Part shown: positions 3,091-57,924 of the stretch, in pieces | Layout of the letters: each line of letters opens with the position of its first letter | Position numbering within the stretch: position 1 is the stretch's first letter | Assembly (NCBI GenBank): GCA_038131485.1 | Contig: JAYPPO010000001.1 | Coordinates: 150,053 to 214,052 of the forward strand | DNA from: Alphaproteobacteria bacterium | GTDB taxonomy: Bacteria > Pseudomonadota > Alphaproteobacteria > MPNO01 > UBA830 | Length of the DNA stretch: 64,000 nt | Direction: 5' to 3' | Notes under the pieces: model-generated | Told to the model about the DNA's origin: nothing | The model's database searches: none | What the model saw: the letters and a program-made list of their open reading frames with translations, nothing else | Translations under genes and position numbers: made by a program

Positions 3091-3134
3091 TCGATATCCC
3101 CCGGGATTGACTAATGAAGCCTCTCACCTAACAT

Positions 3135-12264: not shown

Positions 12265-12348
12265 GATTTCCCTCCCGGTGGTCCCGTTGATTTGTTCTCA
12301 AAACCTATCAGCGGAGCGCGAGGGCGTACAGTCGCAGTCGATGCAGGT

Positions 12349-14211
12349 CTATCCTGCAATTTCTCCGGCGAAGTCCCTGCCGCCGTTGATTTCCGCCAGA
12401 AACGGCTCGGCGAAATCGCGCAGCTTGGAGGCGCCGACGCCGTGAACGTCGGCGAAATCGTCCGTGGTCTGCGGCCGGCGCTTGGCCATATCGATCAGCG
12501 ACTTGTCGCCAAAAACGACATAGGCCGGGACGCCGCGGGCCTTGGCGATCTCGAGCCGCAGCGCGCGCAGGCGGTTCAGGAGCTCGATGTCGGAGTCCGA
12601 CAGGTCGCCCGCCTCGGCGAGATCCTTGCGGCGCCGTGCCGCGGCGGGAGACTTCTTCACGGTATCGGGCCGGTACTTGAACGCCTCCTCGCCGCGCAGC
12701 AGATCGCCGCCCTTCGGCGTGAGTTTCAGCCCGCCGTAGTCCTGGACGTCGAGCGACAGAAACCCTGCGGCGACAAGCTGTCGGACGATCGACTGCCATT
12801 CGTTCTTGTGCAGCTCGGCACCCGCCCCGAAGACGGGCAGCTTGTCGTGGCTCGCCTTTTCGATCTTCTCCGTCGGGCTGCCGCGCAGGATGTCGATGAT
12901 GTGCGCCGCGCCGTAGAGCTGGCCGGTGCGCTCGACGGCGGTCAGTACCTGGGTCGCGAGGTCGGTGCCGTCCCGCACCTCGACCGGGTCGAGGCAGACG
13001 TCGCAATTGCCGCACGGCTCGATCCGTTCGCCGAAATAGGAGAGCAGCGACCGGCGGCGGCACTCCGGCGCCTCGCAATAGGCGACCAGCGCGTCGAGGC
13101 GCTTGTGCTCGCGGCGCTTGCGGTCGGGACCCGACTCCTCGTCCTCGATGAAGACCCGGCGCATGCGGATGTCCTGCAGGCCGTAGACCATATGGGCCTC
13201 GGCGTCCGCCCCGTCGCGCCCGGCGCGCCCGATTTCCTGGTAATAGGCCTCGAGGCTGCCGGGCAGGTCGACGTGAAGAACGAAACGCACGTCCGATTTG
13301 TCGATCCCCATGCCGAACGCGATGGTGGCGACCACCACGACGCCCGGATCCGTCATGAAGGCGTTCTGGTTGGCCTCGCGCAGGCTTTTATCCATGCCCG
13401 CGTGATAGGGCAGCGCGTTGACGCCCTTCGCGCGCAGCCAGGCGGCGGCTTCCTCGGTCTTCTTCCGCGACAGGCAGTAGACGATTCCGCTCTCGCCCGC
13501 GTGGCGTTCTACGAATTCGCCCATCTGCTTCTTCCAGTCGCGCTTCATCTCGACCGACAGCTTGATATTGGGCCGGTCGAAGCCGAGCACGACCGTCTCG
13601 GCGTCGCCGCCGAACAGCTTGGCGGCGATGTCGTCGCGGGTGACCGCATCGGCAGTCGCCGTCAGTGCCGCGATGGGGACGCCCGGGAACACCTCGCGCA
13701 GCGCGCCCAGCATTTCGTACTCGGGCCGGAAGGCAGGTCCCCATTGCGAGATGCAATGCGCCTCGTCGACGGCGATCAGCCGCAGGTCGAGCTTCGCCAG
13801 CGCCGCCAGCATGCGATCCGTCATCAGCCGCTCGGGCGCCATGTAGAGGAGCCGCAGCTCGCCCGCCGCGGCGCGTCGCCAGACGGCGACGTTGTCCTCG
13901 CGCGACTTGGCGGAGTTGATGGTGTCCGCCGCGACCCCCGCGAGCTTGAGCGCCGCGACCTGGTCTTGCATCAGCGCGACCAGCGGCGAGACGACGATCG
14001 TCAGCCCGCCCAGCGCCAGCGCCGGCACCTGGAAACACATCGATTTGCCGGAGCCCGTCGGCATGACCGTCATCACGTTGCGGCCGGCCAGCAGCGCGTC
14101 GACAACCTGCTCCTGTCCCGGCCGGAACGCGTCGAAGCCGAACACGTCCTTCAGGATGCGGTGCTTGTCGTCGAAAGGGGCGGCAGGATCCGAAAGGGCG
14201 GTTGCGGTCAT
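12349..14211 (-). CDS. recQ: ATP-dependent DNA helicase RecQ
   Basis: Motifs FRPGQEQVV, TGSGKS, DEAH, Zn-binding CxxxxCxxC (CGNCDVC) and a C-terminal HRDC region; 620 aa. Confidence 0.95.
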   Translation of the reverse strand: MTATALSDPAAPFDDKHRILKDVFGFDAFRPGQEQVVDALLAGRNVMTVMPTGSGKSMCFQVPALALGGLTIVVSPLVALMQDQVAALKLAGVAADTINSAKSREDNVAVWRRAAAGELRLLYMAPERLMTDRMLAALAKLDLRLIAVDEAHCISQWGPAFRPEYEMLGALREVFPGVPIAALTATADAVTRDDIAAKLFGGDAETVVLGFDRPNIKLSVEMKRDWKKQMGEFVERHAGESGIVYCLSRKKTEEAAAWLRAKGVNALPYHAGMDKSLREANQNAFMTDPGVVVVATIAFGMGIDKSDVRFVLHVDLPGSLEAYYQEIGRAGRDGADAEAHMVYGLQDIRMRRVFIEDEESGPDRKRREHKRLDALVAYCEAPECRRRSLLSYFGERIEPCGNCDVCLDPVEVRDGTDLATQVLTAVERTGQLYGAAHIIDILRGSPTEKIEKASHDKLPVFGAGAELHKNEWQSIVRQLVAAGFLSLDVQDYGGLKLTPKGGDLLRGEEAFKYRPDTVKKSPAAARRRKDLAEAGDLSDSDIELLNRLRALRLEIAKARGVPAYVVFGDKSLIDMAKRRPQTTDDFADVHGVGASKLRDFAEPFLAEINGGRDFAGEIAG

Positions 14212-35257: not shown

Positions 35258-35342
35258 TATCGCGACGGAACGGTCGCGCTTGTCCGGGGACACATTATCA
35301 TGCTGGTTCGCGTGCGCCAGCGCCCGGCGAGAGGGGTTGGGG

Positions 35343-37538
35343 ATGCTCTTTTATCCGAAGTCGAAGGACAGGCCGTATCATCTCGGTTCCTATCCGCTCG
35401 AAGTACTTCCGCGCGACGACGGTGTGCTGGAAGTCGAGGCCGCCCGCCCGCGCGCGCGCGCCAAGGTGGCCGCGGTCGCGTCGGGTCCGCTCGGCGACGC
35501 GGCGGTGAAATACAGCGGCCTATTCGAACGCTTCATCGAGGAAGCTCCCGTCGAGAAACAAGCACCAGTCCCCGCCGACCTCGACCGCCGTGTGCAGGAC
35601 GTAAAAGGCTGCGCCTATTTCATGGATGCGAGCCAGGTCGGCATTTGCTGTATCCCGAACAACGCCTGGCTCGAGGGCGCGACGCCGGTCGCGGATCAAA
35701 CCCACGCCGTCGTCATGCTGTTCGAGCATCCGCGCCTGCCCGACGTCGGCAATCTTGCGCGCGACTTGGTCGACGGCGCCGTCGACGCATCCTGCGAAAT
35801 GCGCGCACTCGAGATCGCGGCCTGCGTCGCGGGGCACTTGCGACAGATGGGCTTCGAAACCCGCATCCACATGCCGGGCAAGAGCCTGCTCGACCTCGAT
35901 CGGATGACGGTGCTGGCCGGGCTCTGCGTTCGCGAGGGCGATACTCTCGCCAACCCGTTCATCGAGGGCAGCTACACGATCGCCGCCATCTCGACCAACT
36001 ACGAGCTCGCCTGCGACCGGCCACTGGCTGCCTCTGCGGCGAACGCGCGCGACAGGGCCTACTGGAAAGGCATCAACGGCGCGACGTCCGGCCGCGAACG
36101 CGTGCGCCGGGCCAAGCGCAAATCGCATGACAGCCGGTATCCCATGGAAACCGTCAAGCGCGTCGACCGTCCGACGACGCTGATCCTCGACGACGAGGTG
36201 CCCCGCGTGCCCAAACGCGCTGCGTTCTTCGAACGTGCGTTGCAGGGCGATCTAGGCGACAAGGCGCGTCGCGAGCGCACGCGCTTTTCGTTCAAGCACC
36301 CGCTGTCGATGAGCCTGTTGAAGGTGATCCGCTCGATGGTGCCACATCAGAGTGGCGAGATCGCAGACGGGGTGAACTCAGAGGAGTATGGTGATCCAGA
36401 GGAAAACGCGAAGGCGATCAAGGCACTGTCCTATTTCCTCGGCTCTGATCTGACCGGCATATGCGAGATCCCGCGTTATGCCTGGAATTCGCACAAGGAG
36501 GACGGCCAGCCGATCGAGATGTATCACCGCTACGCCGTCGTGATGCTGATAGACCAGGGCTACGAAACAATGGAGGGTGCGTCCGGCGACGACTGGATTT
36601 CTGGCGTGCAGTCGATGCGCGGCTATCTGCGCGGCGCCGAGATCGCCGGCGTGATGGGCGAGACGATGCGCTCGCTCGGTTTCCCGTCGCGTTCGCAGAC
36701 CAATGCGGATTCCGACGTCCTCCACATCCCGCTGGTTCTGTGGGCCGGGCTCGGCGAGCTGAGCCGTATCGGTGAGCTAGTCCTCAACCCGTTCGTTGGT
36801 CCGCGCTTCAAGTCGGTGGTGCTGACGACCGACATGCCGCTTGCCGTCGATAAGCCGATCGACTTCGGCCTTCAGTATTTCTGCGACCATTGCCACAAGT
36901 GTGACCGCGAATGCCCGTGCGACGCGATCCCGCACGGCCCCAAGGTCATGTTCAACGGCTACGAAATCTGGAAGCCCGACGTTGAGCGCTGCACGCGCTA
37001 CCGACTGACCAACTCCAAGGGTTCTGCCTGCGGGCGCTGCATGAAGACTTGCCCCCTCAACAAGGTGGTCGATCTCGACGGCGCGCTGATGACGCGGATG
37101 GCGAGTTGGCTCGGGGTCAACGCGCGTTTCCTGAAGCCCGCCTTGGTGCCGCTCGCAACCTGGATCGACGACAAGCTGGGCAACGGCATGCGCAATCCGG
37201 TTAAGAAATGGTGGTTCGACCATGAGATCGTCGAAGACGGCGTGATCGAAGCAAAGGCGACCAACCAACGCGACATTGAGCCGAAGAAAGAGGTCGATAT
37301 CGAAGGCCAGAAGGTCGCCTACTACCACGCCAGCATGATGCCGCCGCCGGATCAGCCGGATACCTTCCCGGTCGATCGCAAGGCGGCGATGGCGGCGAAG
37401 GACCTGCTCGAGACGCCGGCAGAGGCGAGGACGCGGAAGGCGAAGGGAGGTCCGACGCCGGATCATTACAAGCCGACGGCGGCGCTTGGCATTGGTGCGG
37501 CCAAAGACCGTACGGCAAGCCCCTACGCGGACGACTGA
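35343..37538 (+). CDS. Soluble (non-respiratory, 'catabolic-type') reductive dehalogenase homolog with two [4Fe-4S] motifs
   Basis: - Start at ATG 35343 behind GAGAGGGG.
- Cluster motifs CDHCHKCDRECP (CxxCxxCxxxCP) and C-x12-CGRCMKTCP.
- RdhA-type core (AIKALSYFLGSDLTGICEIPRYAW...YAVVMLIDQ) preceded by a degenerate copy of the same module (VKGCAYFMDASQVGICCIPNNAW...HAVVMLFEH).
- No twin-arginine signal and no rdhB-like anchor gene nearby. Confidence 0.7.
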   Translation: MLFYPKSKDRPYHLGSYPLEVLPRDDGVLEVEAARPRARAKVAAVASGPLGDAAVKYSGLFERFIEEAPVEKQAPVPADLDRRVQDVKGCAYFMDASQVGICCIPNNAWLEGATPVADQTHAVVMLFEHPRLPDVGNLARDLVDGAVDASCEMRALEIAACVAGHLRQMGFETRIHMPGKSLLDLDRMTVLAGLCVREGDTLANPFIEGSYTIAAISTNYELACDRPLAASAANARDRAYWKGINGATSGRERVRRAKRKSHDSRYPMETVKRVDRPTTLILDDEVPRVPKRAAFFERALQGDLGDKARRERTRFSFKHPLSMSLLKVIRSMVPHQSGEIADGVNSEEYGDPEENAKAIKALSYFLGSDLTGICEIPRYAWNSHKEDGQPIEMYHRYAVVMLIDQGYETMEGASGDDWISGVQSMRGYLRGAEIAGVMGETMRSLGFPSRSQTNADSDVLHIPLVLWAGLGELSRIGELVLNPFVGPRFKSVVLTTDMPLAVDKPIDFGLQYFCDHCHKCDRECPCDAIPHGPKVMFNGYEIWKPDVERCTRYRLTNSKGSACGRCMKTCPLNKVVDLDGALMTRMASWLGVNARFLKPALVPLATWIDDKLGNGMRNPVKKWWFDHEIVEDGVIEAKATNQRDIEPKKEVDIEGQKVAYYHASMMPPPDQPDTFPVDRKAAMAAKDLLETPAEARTRKAKGGPTPDHYKPTAALGIGAAKDRTASPYADD

Positions 37539-42478: not shown

Positions 42479-43087
42479 TCAGGCGTCAACGCGTTCCTCG
42501 CGGGAGGGCACGCGCTTGTGCAGGTCCCCGTAGAACTCTTCGACCGGCATGAAGCCCGGCGCCTCTCGGCACATCTTTTCGGTGATGTCCATCAGCTCGC
42601 CCTCGTCCATGTTGAAGTCCATGGGCTTCAGGAAAGGCTGGGTGACGTACCAGGGGCTGTCTGCGAAGAATTCGATGCCGTTGCCCTCGGGATCTGTTGC
42701 GTACATCGTCCAACAGATCCCGTGCGTGCCTGTCATGATCTTGGTGTCAGGGCGTTCACGCTGGATACGGAGATACATGGCGCGCAGGTCGGAGAGGGAC
42801 TCGAGCCGGAAGGCCATGTGATGGATAACGCCGCCGGCGCCCTTGGCGATGGTGTTGCCGGGGACGTCGTCCGGACGGCCGTCCACGAGAAAAATCTGAT
42901 GGTGTTCTTCCGGGTCAAGCGTCATGAAGATCATGGTGACGCCGGCGCCGGTCAGCCCGCCGTCCGTGCGTTCGAAACCGATGACGCGGGTGTAGAAGTC
43001 TTCCATCATTTCGATGTCCTTCACGACCAGCCCCATGTGGCTGAATCGCGCTGTGATCTTCTTGTCCGTCGTTGCGTCGACAGGCAT
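42479..43087 (-). CDS. VOC family protein (extradiol dioxygenase/glyoxalase fold)
   Basis: Start at ATG 43087 behind GGGAGGAA. FSHMGLVVKDIEMMEDFYTRVIGF is the VOC module. Confidence 0.8.
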   Translation of the reverse strand: MPVDATTDKKITARFSHMGLVVKDIEMMEDFYTRVIGFERTDGGLTGAGVTMIFMTLDPEEHHQIFLVDGRPDDVPGNTIAKGAGGVIHHMAFRLESLSDLRAMYLRIQRERPDTKIMTGTHGICWTMYATDPEGNGIEFFADSPWYVTQPFLKPMDFNMDEGELMDITEKMCREAPGFMPVEEFYGDLHKRVPSREERVDA

Positions 43088-43202
43088 GCCATTCCTCCCG
43101 AGAAATTTGTGGAACATATTCTGTGTCAGGGAAGGGCGAGAATCAATTCACGCCATACGAGAGTGCCCGGGCCGGGGGCGGCCAATAAGGTCCATAAAGA
43201 TA

Positions 43203-43230
43203 CGGCGGGCGAGGTTTCCCGCGCCCGCCG
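43203..43230 (-). terminator. Probable terminator of the selenoprotein operon
   Basis: 9-bp GC stem CGGCGGGCG/CGCCCGCCG with a 10-nt loop, 23 nt after the redoxin stop. On the minus strand it is followed by UAUCUUUAU. Confidence 0.5.
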
Positions 43231-43253
43231 AGTCTAAGGCCTGCAAATTCAAG

Positions 43254-43724
43254 TTATTTGCGCGATTCGTAGAAATTCACGAGTTTCACGACGTCTTCGG
43301 CCTGAATACGGCCGAGCGGTCCATCGGCGTAGCTCGACGCGACGACCTTGTTGTCTTCGCCCAGGATGAATTCGGATGGCTGGATGATCTGGCGGCGGTC
43401 TTCCCACCAAGAGCCCAACGCGTCTGCGATGTCGCGGGTAACTTCGAAGCCGACCGGGAAATTGACCTCGTTGGTTACTTCCTTCGCCTTGTCTTCCGGA
43501 TCGATGCTCGCCGCGACGACCGAAATCCCGAGCTTGTCTAGCTCAGCCTTCTGTTCTGCGAAGCCGACCAACTGCCGGCGGCAGTAGGGTCACCAATGAC
43601 CCCGATAGAAGAGGATGACCTTGTATTTAGAATTCAGGTCACCCGGAAGGTCCAGCGTGCCCCCGCCGACGGTCTTGATCGTCAAGCTGGGAAACGCGGC
43701 GCCAATCCCAAGTTTATCGGACAT
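43254..43724 (-). CDS. AhpC/TSA-type thiol-disulfide oxidoreductase (Prx-like redoxin) selenoprotein; in-frame TGA (43592..43590) read as Sec, motif W-U-P-Y-C
   Basis: ATG 43724 behind a perfect AAGGAGAA RBS. 44 sense codons (…KVILFYRGHW), then TGA, then PYCRRQLVGFAEQ... continue in the same frame into track ORF 43254..43571. The TGA replaces the first Cys of the redoxin WCPYC motif. Confidence 0.75.
43566..43591 (-). promoter_or_regulatory. Candidate SECIS hairpin of the redoxin selenoprotein
   Basis: mRNA GACC-CU-ACUGCC-GCC-GGCAGU-U-GGUC: 4-bp and 6-bp stems beginning at the GA of the UGA. The apical loop is small and slightly closer to the UGA than in textbook bacterial SECIS. Confidence 0.45.
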
Positions 43725-43837
43725 ACGTTCTCCTTTTCTTCACGAGGGCGGACCGCCCGAAGGTGGCCCGTCCCCGTAGAATGCACAAGCAGGGACGGCG
43801 GCGCAATGGACGCCACGGTAAGATCTAAGCAAAACAT

Positions 43838-44965
43838 TTACTCTGCGGTGTTGGAGGCCGCGTCCTCCTCTAACGCCATCTTTTGCGAGGCGAACGCGTC
43901 GATGCCGATTTCGGCGCGAAGAACGGCGGTGACCGCCGCCTTGTCCTCTTCGAGCGGCTGGCCGGTCGAATCGGCGACGCGGTCGATGGCGTTGAACAGG
44001 GCAGCGACGGCGGCCGAATCGACTAGCGCGTCCCCGCCCATCGCATCGACGATCGCCTGACGCGCGCGGATCAGCCTGTCGACGTCGGGGTCGAGCACCG
44101 CCTCTGCGAACTCGATCAGTAGCGCGCCTTGTTCGACGCCCGTGTCGCCCGCGCCTGACCCTTCAGTGATGGCGTGGAAGTTGAGGGTCTCACCAGCATG
44201 TTCGCTGCCCGCACGGAGCAGTACCGAATGGCTGGTCGTTCAATAGGTACACTGGTTGAGGGCGGAGATCCGGGCCGCGATCAGTTCGATCTGCAGGTGG
44301 CTGATCGCGCGGAATTCCTTCGTGAAGTCGCGCATCTGCGAGCCCGCTAGATACTGCGCGGCGACGACGTCGAAGAAGCTGCGCGCCTCGTCCGGCACTA
44401 GCGTAAGCGCGCGCCGAATGTTGGCCTCTGGACCGACGAAATAGTCTGCCTCGTTAGGTCCGAACTCGTCCCACGCGATATTTGGCGCCCACGCCTGATG
44501 CTGGCGCGCCTCCGTTGGCCGGTAGTGCGAAGGCTCGCCCCCTTGCGCGTCGGGCAGGGCGCGCGGTGGGATGCCCATGCCGTGCGCGAAGGTGTCGATC
44601 GCGATCGTGTGCGCAACGACGCTGACGATCTCGACGAAATGGGTCTCCGGGATCGCCGCGATGGTGCAGTCGTACCAGCTTCTGGTTAGGCGGCCCGGGT
44701 CGGCGACAATAAGGTGGATCATGTCGACCCAGTCACGTGGAAGATCGGTTCCGGCATCGTGCGAGTGTGTCACCAGGAAGGGCGAGAGCGCGTCGCGGAC
44801 TGCGACGCAGGTCGTGCAGCCCCGGGCATGGCGCGTTTCCGCCATTACCTCCACGCGCTGCTCGCCGGTCAGCCAGGCGCCCGGTTTCGACAGCCGGTCC
44901 CAGGCGCGAGCATGCGACTCGCTCAGCTCGTCGCGGATCTTATAGGGGGAGTCGGTGTAGTCCAT
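43838..44965 (-). CDS. Two-repeat AhpD/CMD-fold (alkylhydroperoxidase-like) selenoprotein; in-frame TGA (44242..44240) read as Sec, motif C-T-Y-U-T-T-S-H
   Basis: Track ORFs 44240..45037 and 43838..44098 share one frame and are separated only by the TGA plus 47 sense codons. Start taken at ATG 44965 (MDYTDSPYK) because 45037 would overlap tRNA-Sec. The N-terminal repeat carries an ordinary CTTC pair. Confidence 0.75.
44193..44235 (-). promoter_or_regulatory. Candidate SECIS hairpin of the AhpD-like selenoprotein
   Basis: Starts 7 nt after the UGA. Stems CCAGC/GCUGG, UUCG/CGAA and CUGCU/GGCAG, with a 3-nt bulge, a small internal loop and a 7-nt apical loop CCGUGCG. Confidence 0.6.
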
Positions 44966-45008
44966 AGTGGCTCTTTCCCGTCTGGTCGGCGTTCGTGCGC
45001 CGGGGATT

Positions 45009-45104
45009 TGGCGGAAAAGAGTGGGAGTCGAACCCACCAGGGACGTCTAACGCCCCTCACCGGTTTTGAAGACCGGGCGCCCCACCGGGGTGCGATTCTC
45101 TTCC
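45009..45104 (-). tRNA. selC: tRNA-Sec (anticodon UCA)
   Basis: 96 nt: GGAAGAGA...TCTTTTCC-G-CCA gives an 8-bp acceptor stem. Anticodon loop CUUCAAA (UCA), long variable arm GGTGAGGGGCGTTAGACGTCCCTGG, T-arm GTGGGTTCGACTCCCAC, encoded CCA. Confidence 0.9.
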
Positions 45105-45200
45105 GACCGACCGCAAAAACTAGCAGACAGTGCGAGTGGGCGGCAATGACGGCCGATAAGGGTGTCGGACTCCGGCCGCGCCTGCTAATTTTCGCCAGTC

Positions 45201-46115
45201 GTGACTGACCGTCCTTTTATCCTCGAAGCCTATCGCGGCTATGGTGCGCGCGGGCGCGCTGTATTGCGCGGGCGTATCTACCGCGAACCGCGATGCCGGT
45301 TCGCCTATTTACGCCGTCTCGCGCGGCGGGGGATCGGCGATATCGCGGTGACGGCACTTCTTGGAGGCGTCGAGGCGCGGGCCCGCACCGATCGGGACGG
45401 CTATTTCCGGCTCGCCTGGGACGCGCTTGATGACGGTCTCGAAGGTTGGCGTGACGTGTCGCTGAGCGCCGCCGGGACGACGGCGGCGGGTGAGTTACAC
45501 TTGCGCGGCGCTGCCAGCCGGTTCGTCGTCATCAGCGACATCGACGACACGGTGATGGTCACCGGCGTTGCCAACAAAGCGGCGATGTATTGGCGGCTGT
45601 TTCTGCAATCGCCCGACGCTCGCCGGGTATTTCCCGGCGCGCCGGCTTTCTATCGCGCGCTCCGCGACGGGACGGGGGGCGAGGACAATCCCGTCCTTTT
45701 CGTCTCGCGCGCGCCCTGGAGCATTTACGACGCATTGTCCCGGTTCTTCGCGAGTCAGGGAGTGGCAGAGCGGCCGATCCTGCTGATGCGCGAATGGGGG
45801 CTGACGCTTCAGAGCCCGATGCCGCGACGTGCGCGTGCCCACAAGCGCGAGCTGATCGACGAAATCCTCTCGGTCTACGGCAATGTTGATTGCGTGCTAA
45901 TTGGCGACAACGGCCAGCTAGATCCCGCCCTCTATGCTGATATCGCGGCGTCAAATCCTGGGATAATTCGCGCTGTCTATATCCGCGACGTCGCCGGGAC
46001 TGGCAGGGCCGATCCGCTGGAGAAACTGGATGCGTTGATTGTTAGCGCGGAAACGACCGACATGCTGCGGCACGCGGCTGCAGTGGGGCTGATCGCAGAC
46101 GTCACTCCCCGTTGA
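45201..46115 (+). CDS. App1-family (DUF2183) phosphatase-like protein
   Basis: GTG start; the VISDIDDTV and IGDNGQLDP motifs fit the HAD-like App1 catalytic domain. The 3' end overlaps selB convergently by 14 nt. Confidence 0.7.
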   Translation: MTDRPFILEAYRGYGARGRAVLRGRIYREPRCRFAYLRRLARRGIGDIAVTALLGGVEARARTDRDGYFRLAWDALDDGLEGWRDVSLSAAGTTAAGELHLRGAASRFVVISDIDDTVMVTGVANKAAMYWRLFLQSPDARRVFPGAPAFYRALRDGTGGEDNPVLFVSRAPWSIYDALSRFFASQGVAERPILLMREWGLTLQSPMPRRARAHKRELIDEILSVYGNVDCVLIGDNGQLDPALYADIAASNPGIIRAVYIRDVAGTGRADPLEKLDALIVSAETTDMLRHAAAVGLIADVTPR

Positions 46116-48027
46116 ACGCGTCGGCCGCTGGCCGGATGACCTCGTGGCCGTCGCCTATCCGCCGTGTGAATTTCACCTTGTCGAAAAATTCCAGCACCTC
46201 GATCGCAAGATTGCGGCCGATGTCGGAGGCGTCCCGAAAGGCGGCGGCAGTGACCATGCCGTCGGGCGCGTCGTCGGCGATCCGCTCAGTGATCTCGCCC
46301 AGCAAGCGCAGCGACGCCGGCGGGTAGAAGCGGTTCTTGGAGACTCGTACGACCATGCCGTGCCTTCCGGCGCGAACAAGCAGCGATTCCACCTTGCGGG
46401 GCTCGCTGCCGATTTCGCGGGCGATCTCGACGACAACGGGCGGCCGCAAGCCGCCGTCGAGCAAAATCGGTTCGATCTTGCGCCAGTTCGCGGCATCCGG
46501 GCCCTGCAGCGCCGGCCGATGGTCGGGCAGGCGGACGCCCATGCCTTCCTTAACGATGGCACCTTCGCGCACCAGTTCTGCGGCGATGGCGACCGCGGCA
46601 TCCGCGGGCAGTCGAATCCCAGTGCCGGCGAGGATCCGATTTTCGCCCGGGCCGACAACGTCCGGCGATTTTCTGTGGAAGGCGGCGAGGCCCTCCAGCA
46701 CGGCTATGCGAAGTTTCGCCCAGCGTGTTTCGGAGAAGGCAAGCGGCGCGCCTGGGACGCTGACGCGTTTCATTGCCACCAACTCTGCCATTGCTCCGAT
46801 GTCGTCCGGCGTCAGATTGCGCGCGGCGGCGAACCGGTCGAGATCGAGTCCATTGGGCGCAGCGTCGAGCAGGGCCGATAGCGCGGTCGCGTCGTCCGCT
46901 TCCTCCATCGCCGACAAGAAGGCGAGACGGCTGAGGTGCGCGCGGCCCCGCACCGGAGGGAAGATATCGACTACGCGTCCGCCGCCCACGGTGCGCTGTG
47001 CCGACTGGTCGCGGACGATCAGCCCGTCGCCGTGCACCGCCCCGACCGGTACGTCGAGCACAAGCTGGACCAACGCATCCTCGCCTGGCTGCACCGCGGC
47101 CCCTTCGAGTATCGCAACGCGCCCGGTCGTCTCCATCGCGCCGAGATGGACGTGCACCGGCGTCCAGTGCGTGAGCGGCTGCGCTTCCGACCCGAGCACG
47201 CGAAGCCGGACGTCGATCTTGCGGGCGGGGGGCGGAACGTTGCCAGTAACGACCCAGTCGCCGCGCTTGATCAGATCCTTGTCGAGCTCGGTGCCCGCGA
47301 GGTTGAGGGCGCAGCGCTGGCCCGCCTGGCCGCGCTCGGCTTGGGCGTTCTGCGCATGGACGCCTCGGACGCGCACCTCCATGCCAGCGCCGGCGATACG
47401 GGCTGGCTCGCCGGGTGAGATTTTCCCTGAAAACGCGGTCCCCGTGACGACCAGTCCCGCGCCGACGACGTTGAAGCGCCGGTCGATGGCGAGCCGAAAA
47501 TTGCCGGCCGTCGGGCGCCGTGGCAGGTCGCGCGCGCTCGCGATGAGGTGTTCCTTGAGCGCCTCGATTCCGTCGCCGGTCATGGCGGACAGCGGGAATA
47601 TCGGCGCGTCTTCGAGCGTGGTACCCGCCAGCAGCAGATCTATCTCTTCCGCCACCTCGACGGCGCGCTCTTCCGGCACCCGGTCGATTTTAGTCAGGGC
47701 CACCGCGCCGCGAGAGACGCCAAGTAGGTCAAGAATCGCAAGATGTTCTTGCGTCTGCGGCATCGGACCGTCGTCCGCCGCGACGATGAACAGCACGAAA
47801 TCGATGCCCGCGACACCGCACAGCATGTTGCGAATGAACTTTTCATGGCCGGGCACGTCGATGAAACCGATGGTCTCCGCCCCTTCGAGCGGTAGATACG
47901 CGAAGCCAAGATCAATGGTGAGGCTGCGCTTCTTCTCTTCCGGCAGCCGGTCTGTATCCACGCCCGTCAGCGCCTTGATCAGCAGCGTCTTGCCGTGATC
48001 GACGTGGCCCGCCGTGGCAATGATCAT
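46102..48027 (-). CDS. selB: Selenocysteine-specific translation elongation factor SelB
   Basis: MIIATAGHVDHGKTLLIKALTG...DRLPEEKKRSLTIDLGF GTPase domain plus long C-terminal winged-helix region; 641 aa. ATGA overlap with selA. Confidence 0.9.
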   Translation of the reverse strand: MIIATAGHVDHGKTLLIKALTGVDTDRLPEEKKRSLTIDLGFAYLPLEGAETIGFIDVPGHEKFIRNMLCGVAGIDFVLFIVAADDGPMPQTQEHLAILDLLGVSRGAVALTKIDRVPEERAVEVAEEIDLLLAGTTLEDAPIFPLSAMTGDGIEALKEHLIASARDLPRRPTAGNFRLAIDRRFNVVGAGLVVTGTAFSGKISPGEPARIAGAGMEVRVRGVHAQNAQAERGQAGQRCALNLAGTELDKDLIKRGDWVVTGNVPPPARKIDVRLRVLGSEAQPLTHWTPVHVHLGAMETTGRVAILEGAAVQPGEDALVQLVLDVPVGAVHGDGLIVRDQSAQRTVGGGRVVDIFPPVRGRAHLSRLAFLSAMEEADDATALSALLDAAPNGLDLDRFAAARNLTPDDIGAMAELVAMKRVSVPGAPLAFSETRWAKLRIAVLEGLAAFHRKSPDVVGPGENRILAGTGIRLPADAAVAIAAELVREGAIVKEGMGVRLPDHRPALQGPDAANWRKIEPILLDGGLRPPVVVEIAREIGSEPRKVESLLVRAGRHGMVVRVSKNRFYPPASLRLLGEITERIADDAPDGMVTAAAFRDASDIGRNLAIEVLEFFDKVKFTRRIGDGHEVIRPAADAFNGE

Positions 48028-49436
48028 TTGGCCGGAGAGAGTTTGAAAAGCTGAGCCGCAAACCCGGCCTCGTCGTCGAGGCAGCGAAGATCGAGGACGA
48101 AGCTGTCACCCTGGATACGGCCGATCACAGGAACAGGCAGGAAGCGGAACGCGCTAGCCAGCCCGTTCAGCGAGGAACCAGCCGACTTCGTTTTTTTCGG
48201 TACAACGGCGAGCCCGGCGCTCGGTATGCGCTGGGTCGGGAGCGCGCCGGAGCCGATCTGGCTGTCGCAGTCGGCGACCTCGACAACTCCGAAGTCGCCA
48301 ACGGCTTGCTGCAACGCCGGCTGCAGCCGAGAGGCCGCGGCGCGTATGTCTTCGACCGGCCGGGCGAGCCAGCGCAGCGTGGGGACCCGCGCGACCAGGC
48401 GGTCTGGATTGGCGTAGAGCCGGAGGGTGGCCGACAGCGCCGCGATCGTCATCTTGTCGCAGCGGAGTGCACGTTTCATCGGGTTCTTTTTGAGTTTCGC
48501 GACGATGTCTTTCCTGCCGACGATGATGCCGCATTGCGGTCCGCCCAGCAGCTTGTCGCCCGAGAACGTCACGACGTCCGCACCGTTCTTCATCGCCTCC
48601 ATCGGCGTGGGCTCGTGCGGGAGCCCAAAGCGTTCGAGATTGACAAGCGTGCCGCTGCCGAGGTCGATGGCGAAGGGCAGGCCGTTGTCGTGGCAAAGCT
48701 TCGCAAGCTTGGATTCCGGCACTTCGGCCGTGAAACCCTCGACAACATAGTTGCTGGTATGAACCTTCATGATCATGCCGGTCCTGCGCCCGATCGCCTC
48801 GGCATAGTCCTTCAAGTGCGTCCGATTGGTGGTACCGACTTCGATCAGCTTACAGCCCGACCGCGCCATGATGTCCGGCATGCGGAAGGAGCCGCCGATC
48901 TCGATCAGCTCGCCGCGCGACATCGGCACTTCCTTTCGGCTGGCGAGGCTGTTGAGAACCAGCATAACTGCAGCGGCGTTGTTGTTGACGATGGTGGCTG
49001 CTTCCGCGCCCGTCATCCGGGAGAGGATGCTCTCGATATGCTCGTCGCGGTCTCCGCGTTTTCCGGGCTCGATACGGTACTCGAGGTTGCTCGCGCCGCG
49101 CGCGGCTTCGGCGACGGCGTTGATCGCCTCTTCAGGAAGCGCGGCGCGGCCGAGATTCGTGTGAAGGACCGTGCCGGTCAGGTTGTAGACCGGTCGAAGC
49201 GAAGGGGTCGCCCGACGGTCGAGCTCCTCGGCAACGGCGGCGGCTATGGCGGGAATTTCCATAGCCGGGCCTCCCTCGTTGCGCAGCGTCTCGCGAAGCT
49301 TCGACAGCACTTGCCTGACGGCGTCGGTAGTTTCGCTCCGACCGAACTCCTCTGCGAGCGGCGCCATTTCGGCGTCGCCTAGCAGGCGGTCGACGCTCGG
49401 GAGCGCTGCAAGCGGGTTTCTGGTGTCGTCCGGCAT
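48024..49436 (-). CDS. selA: L-seryl-tRNA(Sec) selenium transferase SelA
   Basis: 470 aa; VNNNAAAV, KVHTSNY and the PLP-lysine block FSGDKLLGGPQCG are present. Confidence 0.9.
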   Translation of the reverse strand: MPDDTRNPLAALPSVDRLLGDAEMAPLAEEFGRSETTDAVRQVLSKLRETLRNEGGPAMEIPAIAAAVAEELDRRATPSLRPVYNLTGTVLHTNLGRAALPEEAINAVAEAARGASNLEYRIEPGKRGDRDEHIESILSRMTGAEAATIVNNNAAAVMLVLNSLASRKEVPMSRGELIEIGGSFRMPDIMARSGCKLIEVGTTNRTHLKDYAEAIGRRTGMIMKVHTSNYVVEGFTAEVPESKLAKLCHDNGLPFAIDLGSGTLVNLERFGLPHEPTPMEAMKNGADVVTFSGDKLLGGPQCGIIVGRKDIVAKLKKNPMKRALRCDKMTIAALSATLRLYANPDRLVARVPTLRWLARPVEDIRAAASRLQPALQQAVGDFGVVEVADCDSQIGSGALPTQRIPSAGLAVVPKKTKSAGSSLNGLASAFRFLPVPVIGRIQGDSFVLDLRCLDDEAGFAAQLFKLSPAK

Positions 49437-49597
49437 AACGGGTGGAGAATAGGCCTTTCGAAGGCTGACGAAAACCTTCCGGGCGGCCCGGGTCGCGGCT
49501 CTTTATGCGATCGCGAAGACATTTACGGCTTGATCAAACGCAGGTGCCAAAAAACAAGATACGTCCTATTCTCTGCGGCAAGAGAGAGACGAAATGG

Positions 49598-49798
49598 ATG
49601 CCAGTTCACGATGCGCTCTTGGCGCTGATCGCCAGGGGCGCCGGTCTCAATGCGCTAGAGAACGACCGTTATGATGTCGTGATGATCGCGTCGGTCACGG
49701 ACAATACAAAGACGCGCGGTATCGTGCTGAAGGCTGGTACCAGCCCGTTTGATGGCTCGAGGCTCCTCATGCTGGCTGAGAAATGCGGCTACACTTAA
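49598..49798 (+). CDS. Hypothetical small protein (66 aa)
   Basis: Inner ATG of track ORF 49505..49798 with GAGAGAG upstream. Moderate GC3 in a lower-GC intergenic region. No recognisable family. Confidence 0.3.
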   Translation: MPVHDALLALIARGAGLNALENDRYDVVMIASVTDNTKTRGIVLKAGTSPFDGSRLLMLAEKCGYT

Positions 49799-49871
49799 GT
49801 GGCCGACACACTGCGCGCGGCGGGCGGCCGGCCCTGACCGGATGAAGCCGCCGCAGTCCCAGGAGGGTGAT

Positions 49872-51089
49872 ATGGACGAAAACGTTTCACGCAATCTCCG
49901 GCCGTCGCTCAAAGCCTCCGCGCGGCGATTCACTGACATAGGCTCTTTTCCCGAACCGGCGCGTACCCGCGTCGGCCAGGTTTTCGAGGCGGCGAAAGCG
50001 TCGCTCGCCCGCGAGTTTGTCGGAATCACGGCGGGTGATATTCCGCGCGGCCTGTTTCCCGTCGTCAAGACCGGCATATCGATGGCGTCGGTACTCAAGG
50101 CTGCGGACCGCCTCCGGGCGGCGCTTGGCCATGACCTGTGGACGCAGGCCTGCTTTCCCGTAGAGGACGACGGTCCGTGGCGGTCGTGGCACAATATGCA
50201 CATCTTCCTCATGCGCCACGGCGTCTCTCTTGCCGAGCTGAGTGATGCCCAGCGCAATGCGGCGCTCGGCCTCGTCGAGGCGTGCTCCAGCGCCGCCGGC
50301 TACCGCAACGCGCGCGACATCATGCGCCTGAACGAGCATGCCGCCGAGATTACTGGCGACCACGAGGAATTCGGCGAATGGTGGTACTGGATCAGCCTTT
50401 TCGGCGAGCCATCCGAGACCGCCCCGTGGGGCTGGCAGATCGACGGTCACCACCTAATCGTCAACTGCTTCATCTACGGCGATCAGATGGTGATGACCCC
50501 CGATTTCCGCGGTTCCGAGCCGGTGCATGCGAAATCCGGCAAGTACGCGGGCACCCGTGTCTTCCACGAGGAACAGTCGCGCGGGCTTCAGTTCATGCAG
50601 GCGCTGTCGGCCAGCCAACAGGAACAGGCGGTCGTTTGCACTCAGCTGCCGCGCGATGTGATTACGACCGCGCAGATGGACAATCTCGAGCTGGCCTATG
50701 CGGGTATCCGTTCTGACGTGTTGGAGCCCACCCAGCAGAAGCTCTTGATGGAGCTGATCGAGATTTATGTCGGGCGCCTGCCCACGGGCCATGACAAGAT
50801 CCGGATGGACGAGGTGAAGAAGCATCTTGCGGAGACACATTTCTCCTGGATCGGCATGCATGAAGCGTCGGAGCCTTTCTACTACAGGGTGCACAGCCCA
50901 GTGATCCTGATCGAGTTCGATCATCTACCCGGCATCATCTGGGACAACATGGAGCCGACGCAGGACCATATCCACACCATCGTGCGGACGCCGAACGGCA
51001 ATGACTACGGCCGCGACCTGCTGCGCCAGCACTACGAGCACCACGACCACAGCCACGCGAATACTCCGCACCGAAAGGGGCTGGTGTGA
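49872..51089 (+). CDS. DUF3500 family protein
   Basis: ATG 49872 behind AGGAGGG. The block WYWISLFGEPSETAPWGWQIDGHHLIVN matches my recollection of DUF3500. Confidence 0.7.
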   Translation: MDENVSRNLRPSLKASARRFTDIGSFPEPARTRVGQVFEAAKASLAREFVGITAGDIPRGLFPVVKTGISMASVLKAADRLRAALGHDLWTQACFPVEDDGPWRSWHNMHIFLMRHGVSLAELSDAQRNAALGLVEACSSAAGYRNARDIMRLNEHAAEITGDHEEFGEWWYWISLFGEPSETAPWGWQIDGHHLIVNCFIYGDQMVMTPDFRGSEPVHAKSGKYAGTRVFHEEQSRGLQFMQALSASQQEQAVVCTQLPRDVITTAQMDNLELAYAGIRSDVLEPTQQKLLMELIEIYVGRLPTGHDKIRMDEVKKHLAETHFSWIGMHEASEPFYYRVHSPVILIEFDHLPGIIWDNMEPTQDHIHTIVRTPNGNDYGRDLLRQHYEHHDHSHANTPHRKGLV

Positions 51090-55599: not shown

Positions 55600-57924
55600 A
55601 TGGCGGACATCGTCGGCGCCCGTGTCAAAAGGATCGAGGATCCCGACCTGCTGCGCGGGCGCGGCGTGTTCGTCGACGACATCCACCTCGCCGCCGGGCT
55701 CCATGCCGCGTTCGTCCGTAGCCCGCATCCGCACGCCGACATCCACGGAATCGATGCAGCTGCAGCCCGCGCGGCGCTGGGCGTGCATGCCGTTTTCACG
55801 CTCGACGATTTCCGGCCTCATCTGACCGGTCCGCGCCTGCCGCTGGAATTTCCCAATAAAGCTCTATCGGACAAAGTGACGCCCTATCTGCTGGCGTCAT
55901 CCGAGGTGTGTTATGTCGGCGAGCCGGTTGCGATGGTAATTGCTGACAGCCGCTATCTTGCGGAGGACGCAGCGATGCTGGTCGAGGTTGACTACGACCC
56001 GCTGCCGTCGGTGGCGGGATGTGCGGCGACCTACGCTGCGGGTTCACCGGCTGTTCATTCGGGGGACACGGATAACATCCTCGCCGAGATCGAGCAGGCC
56101 TATGGTGACGTGGAGGCGGCCTTCGCCGCCGCGCATTCGGTCTATTCAGACCGCTTTCTGCAGCATCGCGGCGGCGCGCACCCGATCGAGGGACGTGGCG
56201 CAGTTGCACGCTACGATGCCATGGATGACCGACTGACGGTTTGGTCGTCGACCCAAATGTCGCATGAGGTCCGCTCCGCGGTCGTTCAGATGTTAAATAT
56301 AGACGAGGGCCGCATCCGCGTCGTTGCACCCGAGGTCGGCGGAGGGTTTGGCTCCAAATACATCGCCTATGCTGAGGAGGTCGCCGTCGCGCTTGCCGCG
56401 AAACTGCTCGACAGACCGGTGAAATGGGTCGAAGACCGGCGCGAACACTTCATTGCCGCCATTCAGGAGCGAGAACAGGACTGGCGAATGGAGATCGCCG
56501 TCGATGCCGACGGCCATGTGTTGGGCGTTCGAGGCGAGATGATCCACGATCAGGGCGCCTACACGCCGCAGGGCATCAACATGCCCTACAACGCATCTAC
56601 TGCCGTGCCCGGTCCCTATGTGGTACCGGCCTATGCAATCAAGGTGCACGTGGTGGAAACCAACGCGGTCCCGACGGCACCAGTGAGGGGCGCAGGCTAC
56701 CCAGAAGGCAACTACGCGATGGAGCGGCTACTTGACAGGGCTGCACAGGGGCTAGGCATGGACCGTGCCGAGATTCGCCGGCGCAACCTGATCCCGGCGG
56801 ACGAGATGCCCTATACGACGCCCCTGCTGACGCGCGCTGGCACGCCGGTCGAGGCCGACAGCGGCGATTTCCCTGAATGCCAACGCATAGCGATGGACGC
56901 TGTGGACTACGCCGGGTTCCCGGCGCGACAAGCGGCGGCTCGGGCTGAGGGCCGCTATATTGGCATCGGTGTTGCCAACAGCCTGAAGGGAACCGGGCGA
57001 GGGCCGTTCGAATCGGGTTCTGTCCGGATCGAGCGCTCCGGCAAGGTTCGCGTGTTTACTGGCGCGCTTGCCATGGGGCAGGGGCTCAAGACGATGCTGG
57101 CGCAGGTGACAGCGGAACAGCTTGGCGTGGGTCTCGACGAGATCGAGGTCGTCGCAGGCGATACCGGCACCATCGCGCTCGGTCTTGGCGGTTTTGCGAG
57201 CCGCCAAACGGTGACGGCCGGCTCGTCCGTACACTATGCTGCATCCGAAGTCCGAACGAAGGTGCTCAAGCTCGCCGCGCACCTGATGGAAGCGGCTGAA
57301 GAAGATCTTGAAATCGTGGACGGCATGATCCGGGTCCGCGGCGCTGACGTGACGATCCCTATGAAGGCCGTTGCCGAGGCGGCATCCGGCGCGCCGGGCT
57401 ACTCGATGCCAGAGGGAATAGATCCGGGGCTGGAAGCGAACGTTAATTTCAAGCCACCGGCGCTGACTTATTCGAACGGCACGCATGTGGTCGAGGCGGA
57501 GGTCGATATTGGGACCGGCTCGGTCGCCTTTCTGCGTTACGTTGTCGTGAGCGACTGCGGCACGCTGATCAACCCGATGATCGTCGACGGCCAAATCGCC
57601 GGCGGAGTCGCACACGGCATCGGTAATGCTTTGTTCGAATGGATGGGCTATGATGAGCGAGGCCAGCCGCTGACCACGAATTTCGGCGAATATCTGATCC
57701 CCAGTGCGCCGGAAATCCCTGATTTCGAGCTGCACTACATGCAGTCGCCGACGCCCTTGAACCCGCTGGGCGTGAAAGGCGTGGGCGAAACAGGCACCGT
57801 GCCGGCCGCTGCCGCGGTGGTCGCCGCGGTTGAGGACGCGCTGTCGCCGTTTGGTGCGAGGATTTCTGATTACCCGGTCAGTCCGGCGAAGATCGTGGAA
57901 ATCGTCCAGAGCGCTCTTGTCTGA
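55600..57924 (+). CDS. Xanthine dehydrogenase/CoxL-family molybdopterin-binding subunit (no small or medium subunit genes adjacent)
   Basis: ATG 55600 (MADIVGARVKRIEDPDLLRGRG, the typical family N-terminus). The track's 54811 start is an alternate-frame run through fahA. 774 aa. Confidence 0.85.
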   Translation: MADIVGARVKRIEDPDLLRGRGVFVDDIHLAAGLHAAFVRSPHPHADIHGIDAAAARAALGVHAVFTLDDFRPHLTGPRLPLEFPNKALSDKVTPYLLASSEVCYVGEPVAMVIADSRYLAEDAAMLVEVDYDPLPSVAGCAATYAAGSPAVHSGDTDNILAEIEQAYGDVEAAFAAAHSVYSDRFLQHRGGAHPIEGRGAVARYDAMDDRLTVWSSTQMSHEVRSAVVQMLNIDEGRIRVVAPEVGGGFGSKYIAYAEEVAVALAAKLLDRPVKWVEDRREHFIAAIQEREQDWRMEIAVDADGHVLGVRGEMIHDQGAYTPQGINMPYNASTAVPGPYVVPAYAIKVHVVETNAVPTAPVRGAGYPEGNYAMERLLDRAAQGLGMDRAEIRRRNLIPADEMPYTTPLLTRAGTPVEADSGDFPECQRIAMDAVDYAGFPARQAAARAEGRYIGIGVANSLKGTGRGPFESGSVRIERSGKVRVFTGALAMGQGLKTMLAQVTAEQLGVGLDEIEVVAGDTGTIALGLGGFASRQTVTAGSSVHYAASEVRTKVLKLAAHLMEAAEEDLEIVDGMIRVRGADVTIPMKAVAEAASGAPGYSMPEGIDPGLEANVNFKPPALTYSNGTHVVEAEVDIGTGSVAFLRYVVVSDCGTLINPMIVDGQIAGGVAHGIGNALFEWMGYDERGQPLTTNFGEYLIPSAPEIPDFELHYMQSPTPLNPLGVKGVGETGTVPAAAAVVAAVEDALSPFGARISDYPVSPAKIVEIVQSALV

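Follow-up and report, generated by a model that had tools for sequence, protein, structure and literature searches.

The 64-kb stretch of DNA that was analysed (the window) contains a real and intact cluster of selA, selB and selC with two client selenoprotein genes, for enzymes of an antioxidant type, from a marine-type alphaproteobacterium, and three of the four selenocysteine (Sec) insertion genes are present. The gene map of the window has selA, selB, the tRNA-Sec gene, an AhpD-like Sec gene and a Prx-like Sec gene in this order on the minus strand, and each was found where the initial annotation, which described the last of them as a redoxin gene, had placed it. It is likely that the locus functions in Sec decoding, with three of the four dedicated genes beside two clients; this assessment includes the redox relay and the transcription units proposed below. 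The arrangement is not due to chance, because it recurs across many independent genomes. Each part comes from an already described family, and thus the cluster is a tidy example rather than a discovery. The genes are as follows:

48024..49436, minus strand: selA, L-seryl-tRNA(Sec) selenium transferase, 470 aa (TIGR00474, Pfam SelA)
46102..48027, minus strand: selB, Sec-specific elongation factor, 641 aa (TIGR00475)
45201..46115, plus strand: APP1_cat (DUF2183) phosphatase-like gene (Pfam PF09949, 136 bits)
45009..45104, minus strand: selC, tRNA-Sec with anticodon UCA, 96 nt including the encoded CCA (ARAGORN, Rfam RF01852)
43838..44965, minus strand: AhpD-like (COG2128/YciW-type) selenoprotein gene, 375 codons (NCBIfam NF041238)
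43254..43724, minus strand: Prx-like, thioredoxin-fold selenoprotein gene, 156 codons (Pfam AhpC-TSA, Redoxin)

SelA gave a full-length match to the TIGR00474 equivalog (588.3 bits compared to a cut-off of 267.9; residues 10 to 456) as well as to Pfam SelA (PF03841; 534 bits) and the Se-cys_synth_N domain, and the gene is 99% identical to selA of the related locus L001. SelB, which scored 432.3 bits with TIGR00475 (cut-off, 242.25), has both the GTPase and the winged-helix portions of the family (GTP_EFTU, Beta-barrel_SelB, SelB-wing_2, and SelB-wing_3 domains). The ATG of selB overlaps the stop codon of selA, with 4 nt shared (ATGA at 48024-48027), and we infer that the two genes form a single translationally coupled unit. 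The tRNA-Sec gene, the sole tRNA that ARAGORN detected within the window, was matched by the full Rfam model (positions 1-91) with 76.2 bits (gathering score, 47; E = 7e-14).

The first client gene has an in-frame TGA at 44240-44242, within the motif N-Q-C-T-Y-U-T-T-S-H (CxxU). The match of its product to NF041238 (AhpD_rel_CFYUT, "alkylhydroperoxidase-related (seleno)protein") was full length and crossed the UGA, with residues 10-360 on profile positions 1-357 and a score of 443.2 bits compared to a cut-off of 175. In alignments with solved structures, U takes the place of the second Cys, a redox cysteine, of the AhpD motif CxxCxxxH: C-T-Y-U-T-T-S-H is matched to C-Y-Y-C-L-T-A-H in PDB 3c1l and to C-V-Y-C-A-V-S-H in 6k40. 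The score with Pfam CMD (20.3 bits) was below the threshold of 23, and no recognisable fold match was found for the N-terminal 210 residues. The TGA is kept in all 36 homologous genes, namely that of the window and those at the 35 related loci retrieved, of which L030 has two, and the 133 codons that follow it encode sequences with 46 to 98% amino-acid identity among homologues. From these sequence features, the protein looks like the COG2128-type "AhpD-like 1" family.

The second client gene has its in-frame TGA at 43590-43592, in the motif G-H-W-U-P-Y-C (UxxC), and this codon is kept in 25 of 25 homologous genes. The product was recognised by Pfam AhpC-TSA (PF00578; 76.2 bits) and Redoxin (50 bits), and no NCBIfam model reached its own cut-off. 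Among proteins of solved structure it is closest to ResA-type CxxC oxidoreductases, in which W-C-P-H-C aligns with W-U-P-Y-C, so that U falls at the first Cys. With an AhpC/TSA-type thioredoxin fold and UxxC replacing the TxxC of peroxiredoxins, the protein fits the metagenomic family "Prx-like 1, UxxC" (PMC1088965, PMC2398784).

A hairpin with G/U in its loop follows each of the two UGA codons, as in bacterial SECIS elements, and its pairing is kept in relatives:

44192..44236, minus strand: SECIS-like stem-loop of the AhpD-like gene (pairing across homologues)
43563..43579, minus strand: SECIS-like hairpin of the Prx-like gene, 6 bp with loop AGUUR (pairing across homologues)

In the AhpD-like gene, the apical hairpin (44205-44221) presents a CGUGC loop 25 to 29 nt after the UGA codon. 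Among 26 distinct sequences the loop is almost invariant and the apical helix was paired in 99.4% of cells, with CG-to-GC swaps; pairing is poorer in the lower helices (62% and 75% of cells). The Prx-like hairpin starts 11 nt after the UGA, has its loop 17 to 21 nt after that codon and was paired in 100% of cells among 20 distinct sequences, one pair occurring as GU, AU, GC and UA. When the partner columns were slid as a control, 51% of cells at most were paired. An alternative hairpin of minimum free energy, predicted from the single Prx-like sequence, was without covariation support. Judged by this conservation of pairing, both UGA-proximal hairpins are SECIS elements and predicted targets of SelB.

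By homology, SelA would convert Ser-tRNA(Sec) to Sec-tRNA(Sec), which SelB would carry to both in-frame UGA codons, each marked by the SECIS hairpin immediately downstream. The CxxU YciW/AhpD-like protein and the UxxC Prx-like protein would most likely act as a two-component thiol/selenol redox relay, a proposal drawn only from the adjacency of their genes and the analogy with AhpC and AhpD. In the alkylhydroperoxide reductase pair AhpC-AhpD of Mycobacterium tuberculosis, a peroxiredoxin-fold gene lies beside an AhpD-fold gene, and the CxxC-type centre of AhpD can reduce a peroxiredoxin-fold partner. The window has the same adjacency of a Prx-fold and an AhpD-fold gene, and its U aligns with the AhpD CxxC. 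However, Sec is present in both centres here, the UxxC of the Prx-like protein is of the thioredoxin type with no Prx TxxC, and the AhpD-like protein has an extra N-terminal region of ∼210 aa.

Prx-like and AhpD-like selenoprotein genes have also been found co-located in marine metagenomes (Zhang & Gladyshev 2008, PMC2398784; 2026 review, PMC13188914). That pair and the one in the window share in-frame UGA codons, CxxU and UxxC motifs, adjacency on one strand and a marine habitat signal. The single published read combines "Prx-like 1" with "AhpD-like 2" (pfam02627), whereas the AhpD-like gene here is of the NF041238 type and looks like "AhpD-like 1". Linkage to selABC, present here, is not mentioned in PMC2398784 or PMC13188914.

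Three further features bear on the transcription of selC and both client genes:

45105..45200, no strand assigned: divergent intergenic region of 96 bp between the APP1-like gene and selC (gene layout)
44966..45008, minus strand: spacer of 43 nt between selC and the AhpD-like gene, with a purine-rich, ribosome-binding-like stretch, GGGAAAGAG (sequence)
43205..43222, minus strand: terminator-like hairpin with a U-rich tract behind it, 32 nt past the stop codon of the Prx-like gene (consensus match only)

The measured distance from the 3' end of selC to the first selenoprotein ATG agreed with the 43 bp given in the initial annotation. The corresponding selC-to-gene spacers are ∼52 nt in L024 and ∼15 nt in L030. 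A terminator scan predicted no terminator-like site in the spacer of the window and, from selC to the Prx-like stop codon, only one weak site, which is inside the AhpD-like coding sequence. From the gene layout, we infer that the 96-bp region is the sole possible site for the promoter of selC, and for that of the selenoprotein genes if they are co-transcribed. Nowhere in 43000-49700 did a consensus scan report a promoter-like site; a weak TTGCCG-N17-CTAGTT motif was read by eye 13 nt upstream of the tRNA-Sec 5' end. It is possible that selC and the selenoprotein genes are on a shared transcript. The three genes would then probably form the second transcription unit in this genome, which would start in the 96-bp region and run to the hairpin beyond the Prx-like gene, a likely end of the transcription unit, with tRNA-Sec cut out of the 5' end of the mRNA.

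The thrU-tyrU-glyT-thrT-tufB operon of Escherichia coli is an example of a tRNA-mRNA co-transcript. Common to such transcripts and the locus described here is a tRNA gene immediately upstream of a coding gene in the same orientation, without an intervening terminator. Processing of the tRNA would form the 5' end of the mRNA, which is putative in the present case, and the putative leader tRNA-Sec is one that is needed to decode its own mRNA. A polycistron of selB, selC and an ORF has been hypothesised previously (Mukai 2021, PMC8124441).

The competing explanation, to which we give somewhat less than an even chance, is that selC has a short transcript of its own and that the promoter of the AhpD-like and Prx-like genes overlaps either the spacer or the 3' portion of the tRNA gene. 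In related loci with spacers of 133 to 245 nt (L020, L023, and L025), TTGAC(C/G)-N15-17-TA-rich motifs could be read by eye between selC and the AhpD-like gene, and in many relatives selC lies 6.5 to 8.3 kb away, beyond a run of catabolic genes, from the selenoprotein genes, which are thus expressible without an adjacent selC. Because the relatives with longer spacers show the TTGAC-type motif, a separate promoter between selC and the AhpD-like gene may have been the ancestral state. However, the distance between the tRNA 3' end and the ATG is short in the window and still shorter in L030, neither a promoter-like nor a terminator-like site was predicted in or near the spacer, and TTCGAC ... 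AAATCC of the T-arm region, read by eye, matches a -35/-10 pair poorly.

The order selA-selB-selC, followed after 0 to 8 kb by the AhpD-like and Prx-like genes, was found in many alphaproteobacterial metagenome-assembled genomes, adjoining the same homogentisate-pathway genes. In 16 of 28 species-representative genomes the AhpD-like gene has a tRNA-Sec gene of the same orientation no more than 10 kb upstream, and in 20 of 26 it is directly followed by a Prx-like Sec gene. A selenoprotein gene next to co-directional selA, selB and selC is seen again in L019, L020, L022-L025, L030, and L035. The gene set is thus a conserved syntenic unit among relatives, but the module, for which the initial annotation had asked whether it travels as a unit, does not always do so: no sel genes were detected within 10 kb of distant AhpD-like homologues (48 to 57% identity; L004/L028, L027, L031, and L032), and selC is separated from its clients by the catabolic genes noted above in many close relatives.

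The locus looks like a vertically inherited chromosomal arrangement of the clade and no mobile cassette. Transfer of the Sec trait is said to need clustered selABC and at least one selenoprotein gene (PMC1794560), and a locus this compact, into which an unrelated APP1-like gene has been inserted and whose genes in the interval from selC to the clients differ among relatives, could be read as a horizontally mobile Sec cassette with its own clients, as proposed for selABC-fdhA transfers. This seems improbable, because relatives at 70 to 79% identity have the same chromosomal neighbours: hmgA-fahA adjoin selA in the window, L001, L019, and L035 (fahA in L023), and an aldolase_II gene and an NMT1-like gene are downstream on the other side in the window and L033. 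Furthermore, the GC content is flat (0.58 to 0.67), with no deviation at the locus, and no integrase, transposase or repeat boundary was found among the flank ORFs scanned.

The absence of selD and formate dehydrogenase, reported at the outset, holds for the 64-kb window. A tblastn search with an E. coli SelD probe gave no match there, and selD was not found within 10 kb of the 35 related loci either. No formate-dehydrogenase-type molybdopterin domain was present among the ORFs of the window scanned with Pfam, a scan that took in all non-nested ORFs of at least 600 aa, and smaller ones only beyond the first 30 kb. The description of the locus as a "self-contained" Sec module is wrong, because selenophosphate synthetase is needed and is missing here. 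selD evolves independently of the other Sec components (PMC1794560); an unlinked selD is a common situation and no peculiarity of this locus, and we assume that the gene is encoded elsewhere in the genome. Decay of the Sec trait, with both TGA codons true stops, the downstream frames remnants, and selA, selB and selC persisting without selD, is very improbable: selD was found neither in the window nor at any related locus examined, and public gene callers annotate just truncated products of ∼245 aa, but such truncation is the usual artefact of gene callers at Sec codons, SelA, SelB and tRNA-Sec are full length and far above their family cut-offs, and conservation of the TGA codons, the downstream coding sequences and the SECIS hairpins, compensatory changes included, extends across genomes to proteins only 48% identical, which is incompatible with neutral decay.

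Operons of selA, selB and selC with a neighbouring fdhA, and fdoGHI-selABC(D) arrangements, are known from Alpha-, Beta-, and Gammaproteobacteria (PMC1794560; Mukai 2021, PMC8124441). The locus in the window has the same three genes in the same order on one strand, with selA and selB coupled and selC downstream of selB; in both cases at least one client is adjacent, and selD is often outside the core unit. The clients here are AhpD-like and Prx-like proteins instead of formate dehydrogenase. In many Rhizobiales selC is nested in or overlaps selB, whereas there is no overlap here. A further difference from the selABC-fdhA operons is the unrelated convergent gene between selB and selC.

This APP1/DUF2183 gene splits the locus and overlaps the 3' end of selB by 14 nt (46102-46115), as initially annotated. 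The surroundings are also, as had been proposed, a region of aromatic catabolism: ORF profile scans identified catabolic genes in the flanks, namely homogentisate dioxygenase, fumarylacetoacetase, UbiD, an FAD ring hydroxylase, and VanA-like and LigXa-like Rieske oxygenases. The APP1-like gene is outside Sec function. Among the related loci compared, it occupies the selB/selC junction only in the window and the near-identical L001; where relatives have both selB and selC, the distance from one to the other is mostly ∼10 to 150 nt, with selC second.

The selenocysteine (Sec) locus consisted of five minus-strand elements within window positions 43.2 to 49.4 kb.

48024-49436, minus strand: selA (TIGR00474, 588 bits; cut-off, 268)
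46102-48027, minus strand: selB (TIGR00475, 432 bits; cut-off, 242), with SelB winged-helix domains
45009-45104, minus strand: tRNA-Sec (selC), anticodon UCA, CCA encoded (ARAGORN; Rfam RF01852, 76 bits; gathering score, 47)
43838-44965, minus strand: AhpD-like (CxxU) selenoprotein gene, in-frame TGA at 44240-44242
43254-43724, minus strand: Prx-like (UxxC) selenoprotein gene, in-frame TGA at 43590-43592

The gene map, ARAGORN, Rfam, and profile matches agreed with all of the coordinates and features listed in the initial annotation, and its description of a compact Sec locus holding both machinery (selA, selB, and selC) and client genes (the two selenoprotein genes) was borne out. The selA stop codon and the selB ATG overlap (ATGA), and the 3' end of the tRNA lies 43 nt from the AhpD-like ATG. 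The gene convergent to selB, with a 14-nt overlap, is on the plus strand and encodes an APP1_cat domain (45201-46115; referred to here as APP1-like). The tRNA-Sec gene was the sole tRNA gene across the 64-kb window, in which RF3 was also encoded besides SelA.

The 375-amino-acid AhpD-like product, with Sec (U) read as cysteine, matched NCBIfam NF041238, titled "alkylhydroperoxidase-related (seleno)protein," at 443 bits (cut-off, 175), and the match crossed the UGA. Its C-T-Y-U-T-T-S-H segment aligned onto the CxxCxxxH redox motif of the solved AhpD-core proteins 3c1l and 6k40. The Sec codon was TGA in 36 of 36 genes (35 related loci, with two genes in L030, plus the window), and the 133 codons 3' of the UGA were 46 to 98% identical among related loci. 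The best 120 homologues listed from a search of 5.8 billion proteins were ∼235 to 290 amino acids long, mostly ∼245, and spanned only the portion preceding the UGA, because gene callers stop at that codon. In the SECIS-like hairpin, located 3' of the UGA, 99.4% of the cells of the apical 6-bp helix were paired over 26 distinct sequences; CG-to-GC swaps occurred in the helix, and the CGUGC loop was nearly invariant. An AlphaFold2 model of the N-terminal 241 amino acids had a mean pLDDT of 66, and a Foldseek search with this model against the PDB gave zero matches with E < 0.001; a weak Foldseek match to Sestrin2 (E = 1.9) was not taken as evidence. A second conserved cysteine pair, R-H-A-x-x-C50-x-x-C53, is located in this N-terminal region at residues 45 to 60 (window ∼44786-44833, minus strand). 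C50 is invariant, C53 is present in at least 90% of sequences, and the pair could be a second redox center.

The 156-amino-acid Prx-like product had an AhpC/TSA fold (76 bits), and its W-U-P-Y-C motif aligned onto the W-C-P-H-C of ResA-type thiol-disulfide oxidoreductases. Its Sec codon was TGA in 25 of 25 homologous genes. The SECIS-like hairpin of this gene, a 6-bp helix with an AGUUR loop, showed pairing in 100% of cells; at one position, the pair varied among GU, AU, GC, and UA. The minimum-free-energy hairpin 3' of the same UGA was rejected as the SECIS, being only 87% paired and not above shuffled controls. Single-sequence folding z-scores were unremarkable (-1.3 and -1.8), leaving only the comparative analysis informative, and an Rfam search of the window sequence for bacterial SECIS elements returned no match. 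When the window was scanned, by a crude procedure, for genes with an in-frame TGA and coding-like GC3 on either side, the AhpD-like gene was recovered, and the only other candidate with a cysteine beside the TGA was antisense to hmgA. The scan is insensitive, because the Prx-like gene itself fell below its filters. The family matches, the position of Sec, the truncated annotations, and the SECIS-like hairpins together indicate that both UGA-containing genes are real selenoprotein genes. Public gene calls cut both products at the UGA, and the locus is useful for mending truncated annotations.

By homology, SelA would produce Sec-tRNA(Sec), and SelB, via its winged-helix domains, would read the SECIS hairpins and decode the two UGAs. 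The two client genes are neighbors in most relatives, and Sec lies within a redox motif in each product; from this we infer that the two products most likely form a selenol/thiol redox relay, comparable to AhpC-AhpD. Both families were first described in metagenomes of the Sargasso Sea and GOS surveys, in which they are among the most abundant selenoproteins (PMC1088965, PMC2398784), and their co-location has already been noted (PMC2398784; 2026 review, PMC13188914). The locus provides a concrete gene pair with which the function of these two abundant marine families can be tested.

The initial annotation suggested that the locus, lacking selD and formate dehydrogenase, may be a self-contained redox-defense module. 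The compact locus with its clients stands, but "self-contained" does not, as a search of the window with an approximate E. coli SelD sequence gave no selD. No formate-dehydrogenase-type molybdopterin domain was found by Pfam in the scanned part of the window, which covered all non-nested open reading frames (ORFs) of at least 600 amino acids and smaller ORFs only beyond the first 30 kb. The absence of both genes from the locus is correct, though unremarkable. The selD gene of E. coli is linked to neither selAB nor selC. selD evolves independently of selABC and is often paired with ybbB (Zhang et al., PMC1794560). That the UGA, the SECIS, and the codons beyond them are conserved points to a working pathway, and therefore selD is probably encoded elsewhere in the genome.

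The relatives were scanned with one genome per species, which gave 28 loci with an AhpD-like selenoprotein gene. All 28 were in alphaproteobacterial metagenome-assembled genomes (MAGs), mostly labeled Rhodospirillaceae or unclassified Alphaproteobacteria, and many were marine. A tRNA-Sec gene was present upstream of the AhpD-like gene, on the same strand and within 10 kb, in 16 of the 28 loci (13 of the 21 whose upstream sequence extends for 9 kb or more), and the Prx-like Sec gene immediately followed the AhpD-like gene in 20 of 26 related genomes. Most of the tRNA-Sec-bearing loci had selB, and often selA too, upstream of the tRNA. The spacing between selC and the AhpD-like gene varied: ∼15 to 250 nt in L020, L023 to L025, and L030; one small intervening gene in L019, L022, and L035; and, in ten further species genomes, a stretch of 6.5 to 8.3 kb occupied by catabolic genes. 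Neighbors were also shared between the window and relatives at 70 to 79% identity, with hmgA-fahA beside selA and aldolase_II and an NMT1-like gene downstream. The module does not travel as a unit in all relatives: the gene order recurs, but distant AhpD-like homologues (48 to 57% identity) are alone, without sel genes nearby. The picture from these comparisons is of an inherited chromosomal arrangement that has loosened in some lineages, rather than a mobile cassette.

The locus of GCA_038116875.1 (L001) was nearly identical to that of the window, including the APP1-like gene. In most relatives with selB upstream of tRNA-Sec, the gap from selB to selC was ∼10 to 150 nt, and the APP1-like gene is therefore a recent insertion in the lineage of the window. 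A DUF3500 gene (329 bits; 49749-51089, plus strand), divergent from selA, was 100% identical in L001 and was detected by tblastn in none of the other related loci. In L021, tRNA-Sec (3022-3117) is 6.9 kb upstream of the AhpD-like gene with no SelB match in the 3 kb upstream of the tRNA, and selC seems to be detached from selB. L030 (4379-7213, plus strand) carries two tandem AhpD-like Sec genes followed by a Prx-like Sec gene; its tRNA-Sec 3' end is ∼15 nt before the first AhpD-like start codon, and its selB and selC are ∼1.1 kb apart.

The initial annotation also proposed a shared promoter for selC and its clients. Since the 3' end of selB falls within a convergent gene, a separate promoter would be needed for selC and the two selenoprotein genes, and the only room for it is the 96 bp upstream of selC. 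Apart from a weak match at chance level within the AhpD-like coding sequence, there was no terminator-like site from selC to the Prx-like stop codon; beyond the Prx-like gene is a hairpin whose tail is U-rich (43205-43222). Short selC spacers were present in three separate genomes (43 nt in the window, ∼52 nt in L024, and ∼15 nt in L030). Counting against co-transcription, a consensus scan found no promoter-like site in the Sec-locus region, and in relatives with 133 to 245 nt from selC to the AhpD-like gene, this spacer had TTGAC-type motifs. On balance, putative co-transcription of selC with the selenoprotein genes in the genome of the window is slightly favored, and it would provide a simple matching of tRNA-Sec supply to demand.

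It is rather doubtful that, in this lineage, tRNA-Sec serves as the 5' leader of the clients' mRNA and that, in addition, the Sec trait is kept only by these redox selenoproteins. One promoter would then set tRNA-Sec supply together with the UGA/SECIS-bearing mRNA, RNase P and 3'-end processing would generate the mRNA 5' end, and these aerobic marine alphaproteobacteria would have a Sec trait without Sec-containing formate dehydrogenase or SelD. An older rule holds that every selenoproteome contains formate dehydrogenase (FdhA) or SelD (PMC1794560), to which maintenance of the trait by redox selenoproteins alone would be an exception. For Alphaproteobacteria, a polycistron joining selC to ORFs downstream of it has been hypothesized (PMC8124441). 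A selA-selB-selC operon with neighboring fdhA is a described pattern in Alpha-, Beta-, and Gammaproteobacteria (PMC1794560, PMC5029168), whereas the clients in the window are redox selenoproteins instead of fdhA. As a clear and well-conserved case, the locus shows that the clustering of Sec machinery with client genes extends beyond formate dehydrogenase, to ocean-abundant redox selenoproteins. The cited literature does not spell out the combination of selABC with AhpD-like and Prx-like genes beside homogentisate-pathway genes in a marine alphaproteobacterial clade. The locus leaves the current understanding of Sec decoding unchanged and is not expected to surprise a specialist.

The aromatic-catabolism surroundings described initially were evident in both flanks. 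Homogentisate 1,2-dioxygenase and fumarylacetoacetase genes are on the selA side; the other side encodes a VOC/glyoxalase-fold protein, a class II aldolase, VanA-like and LigXa-like Rieske oxygenases, UbiD, and an FAD ring hydroxylase. GC content was flat over the region (0.58 to 0.67). A 752-amino-acid ORF at 35280-37538 (plus strand) had a coding-like GC3 of 0.81, and its only Pfam hit was a weak one to a 4Fe-4S dicluster domain, at a sub-threshold 24 bits. The large subunit of a xanthine-dehydrogenase/aldehyde-oxidase-type molybdenum hydroxylase is encoded at ∼55600-57924 (plus strand), ∼6 kb from selA, and in L033 (5275-8914) and L034, selC is separated from the AhpD-like gene by three genes for a CoxM/S/L-like molybdenum hydroxylase. 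In L035, from a 4.3-Mb MAG, the AhpD-like and Prx-like genes are followed by a third selenoprotein gene (11814-12506, plus strand), deiodinase-like, with an in-frame TGA and the motif F-G-S-Y-T-U-P-P-F; therefore, the sel locus in some relatives appears to collect further selenoprotein genes.
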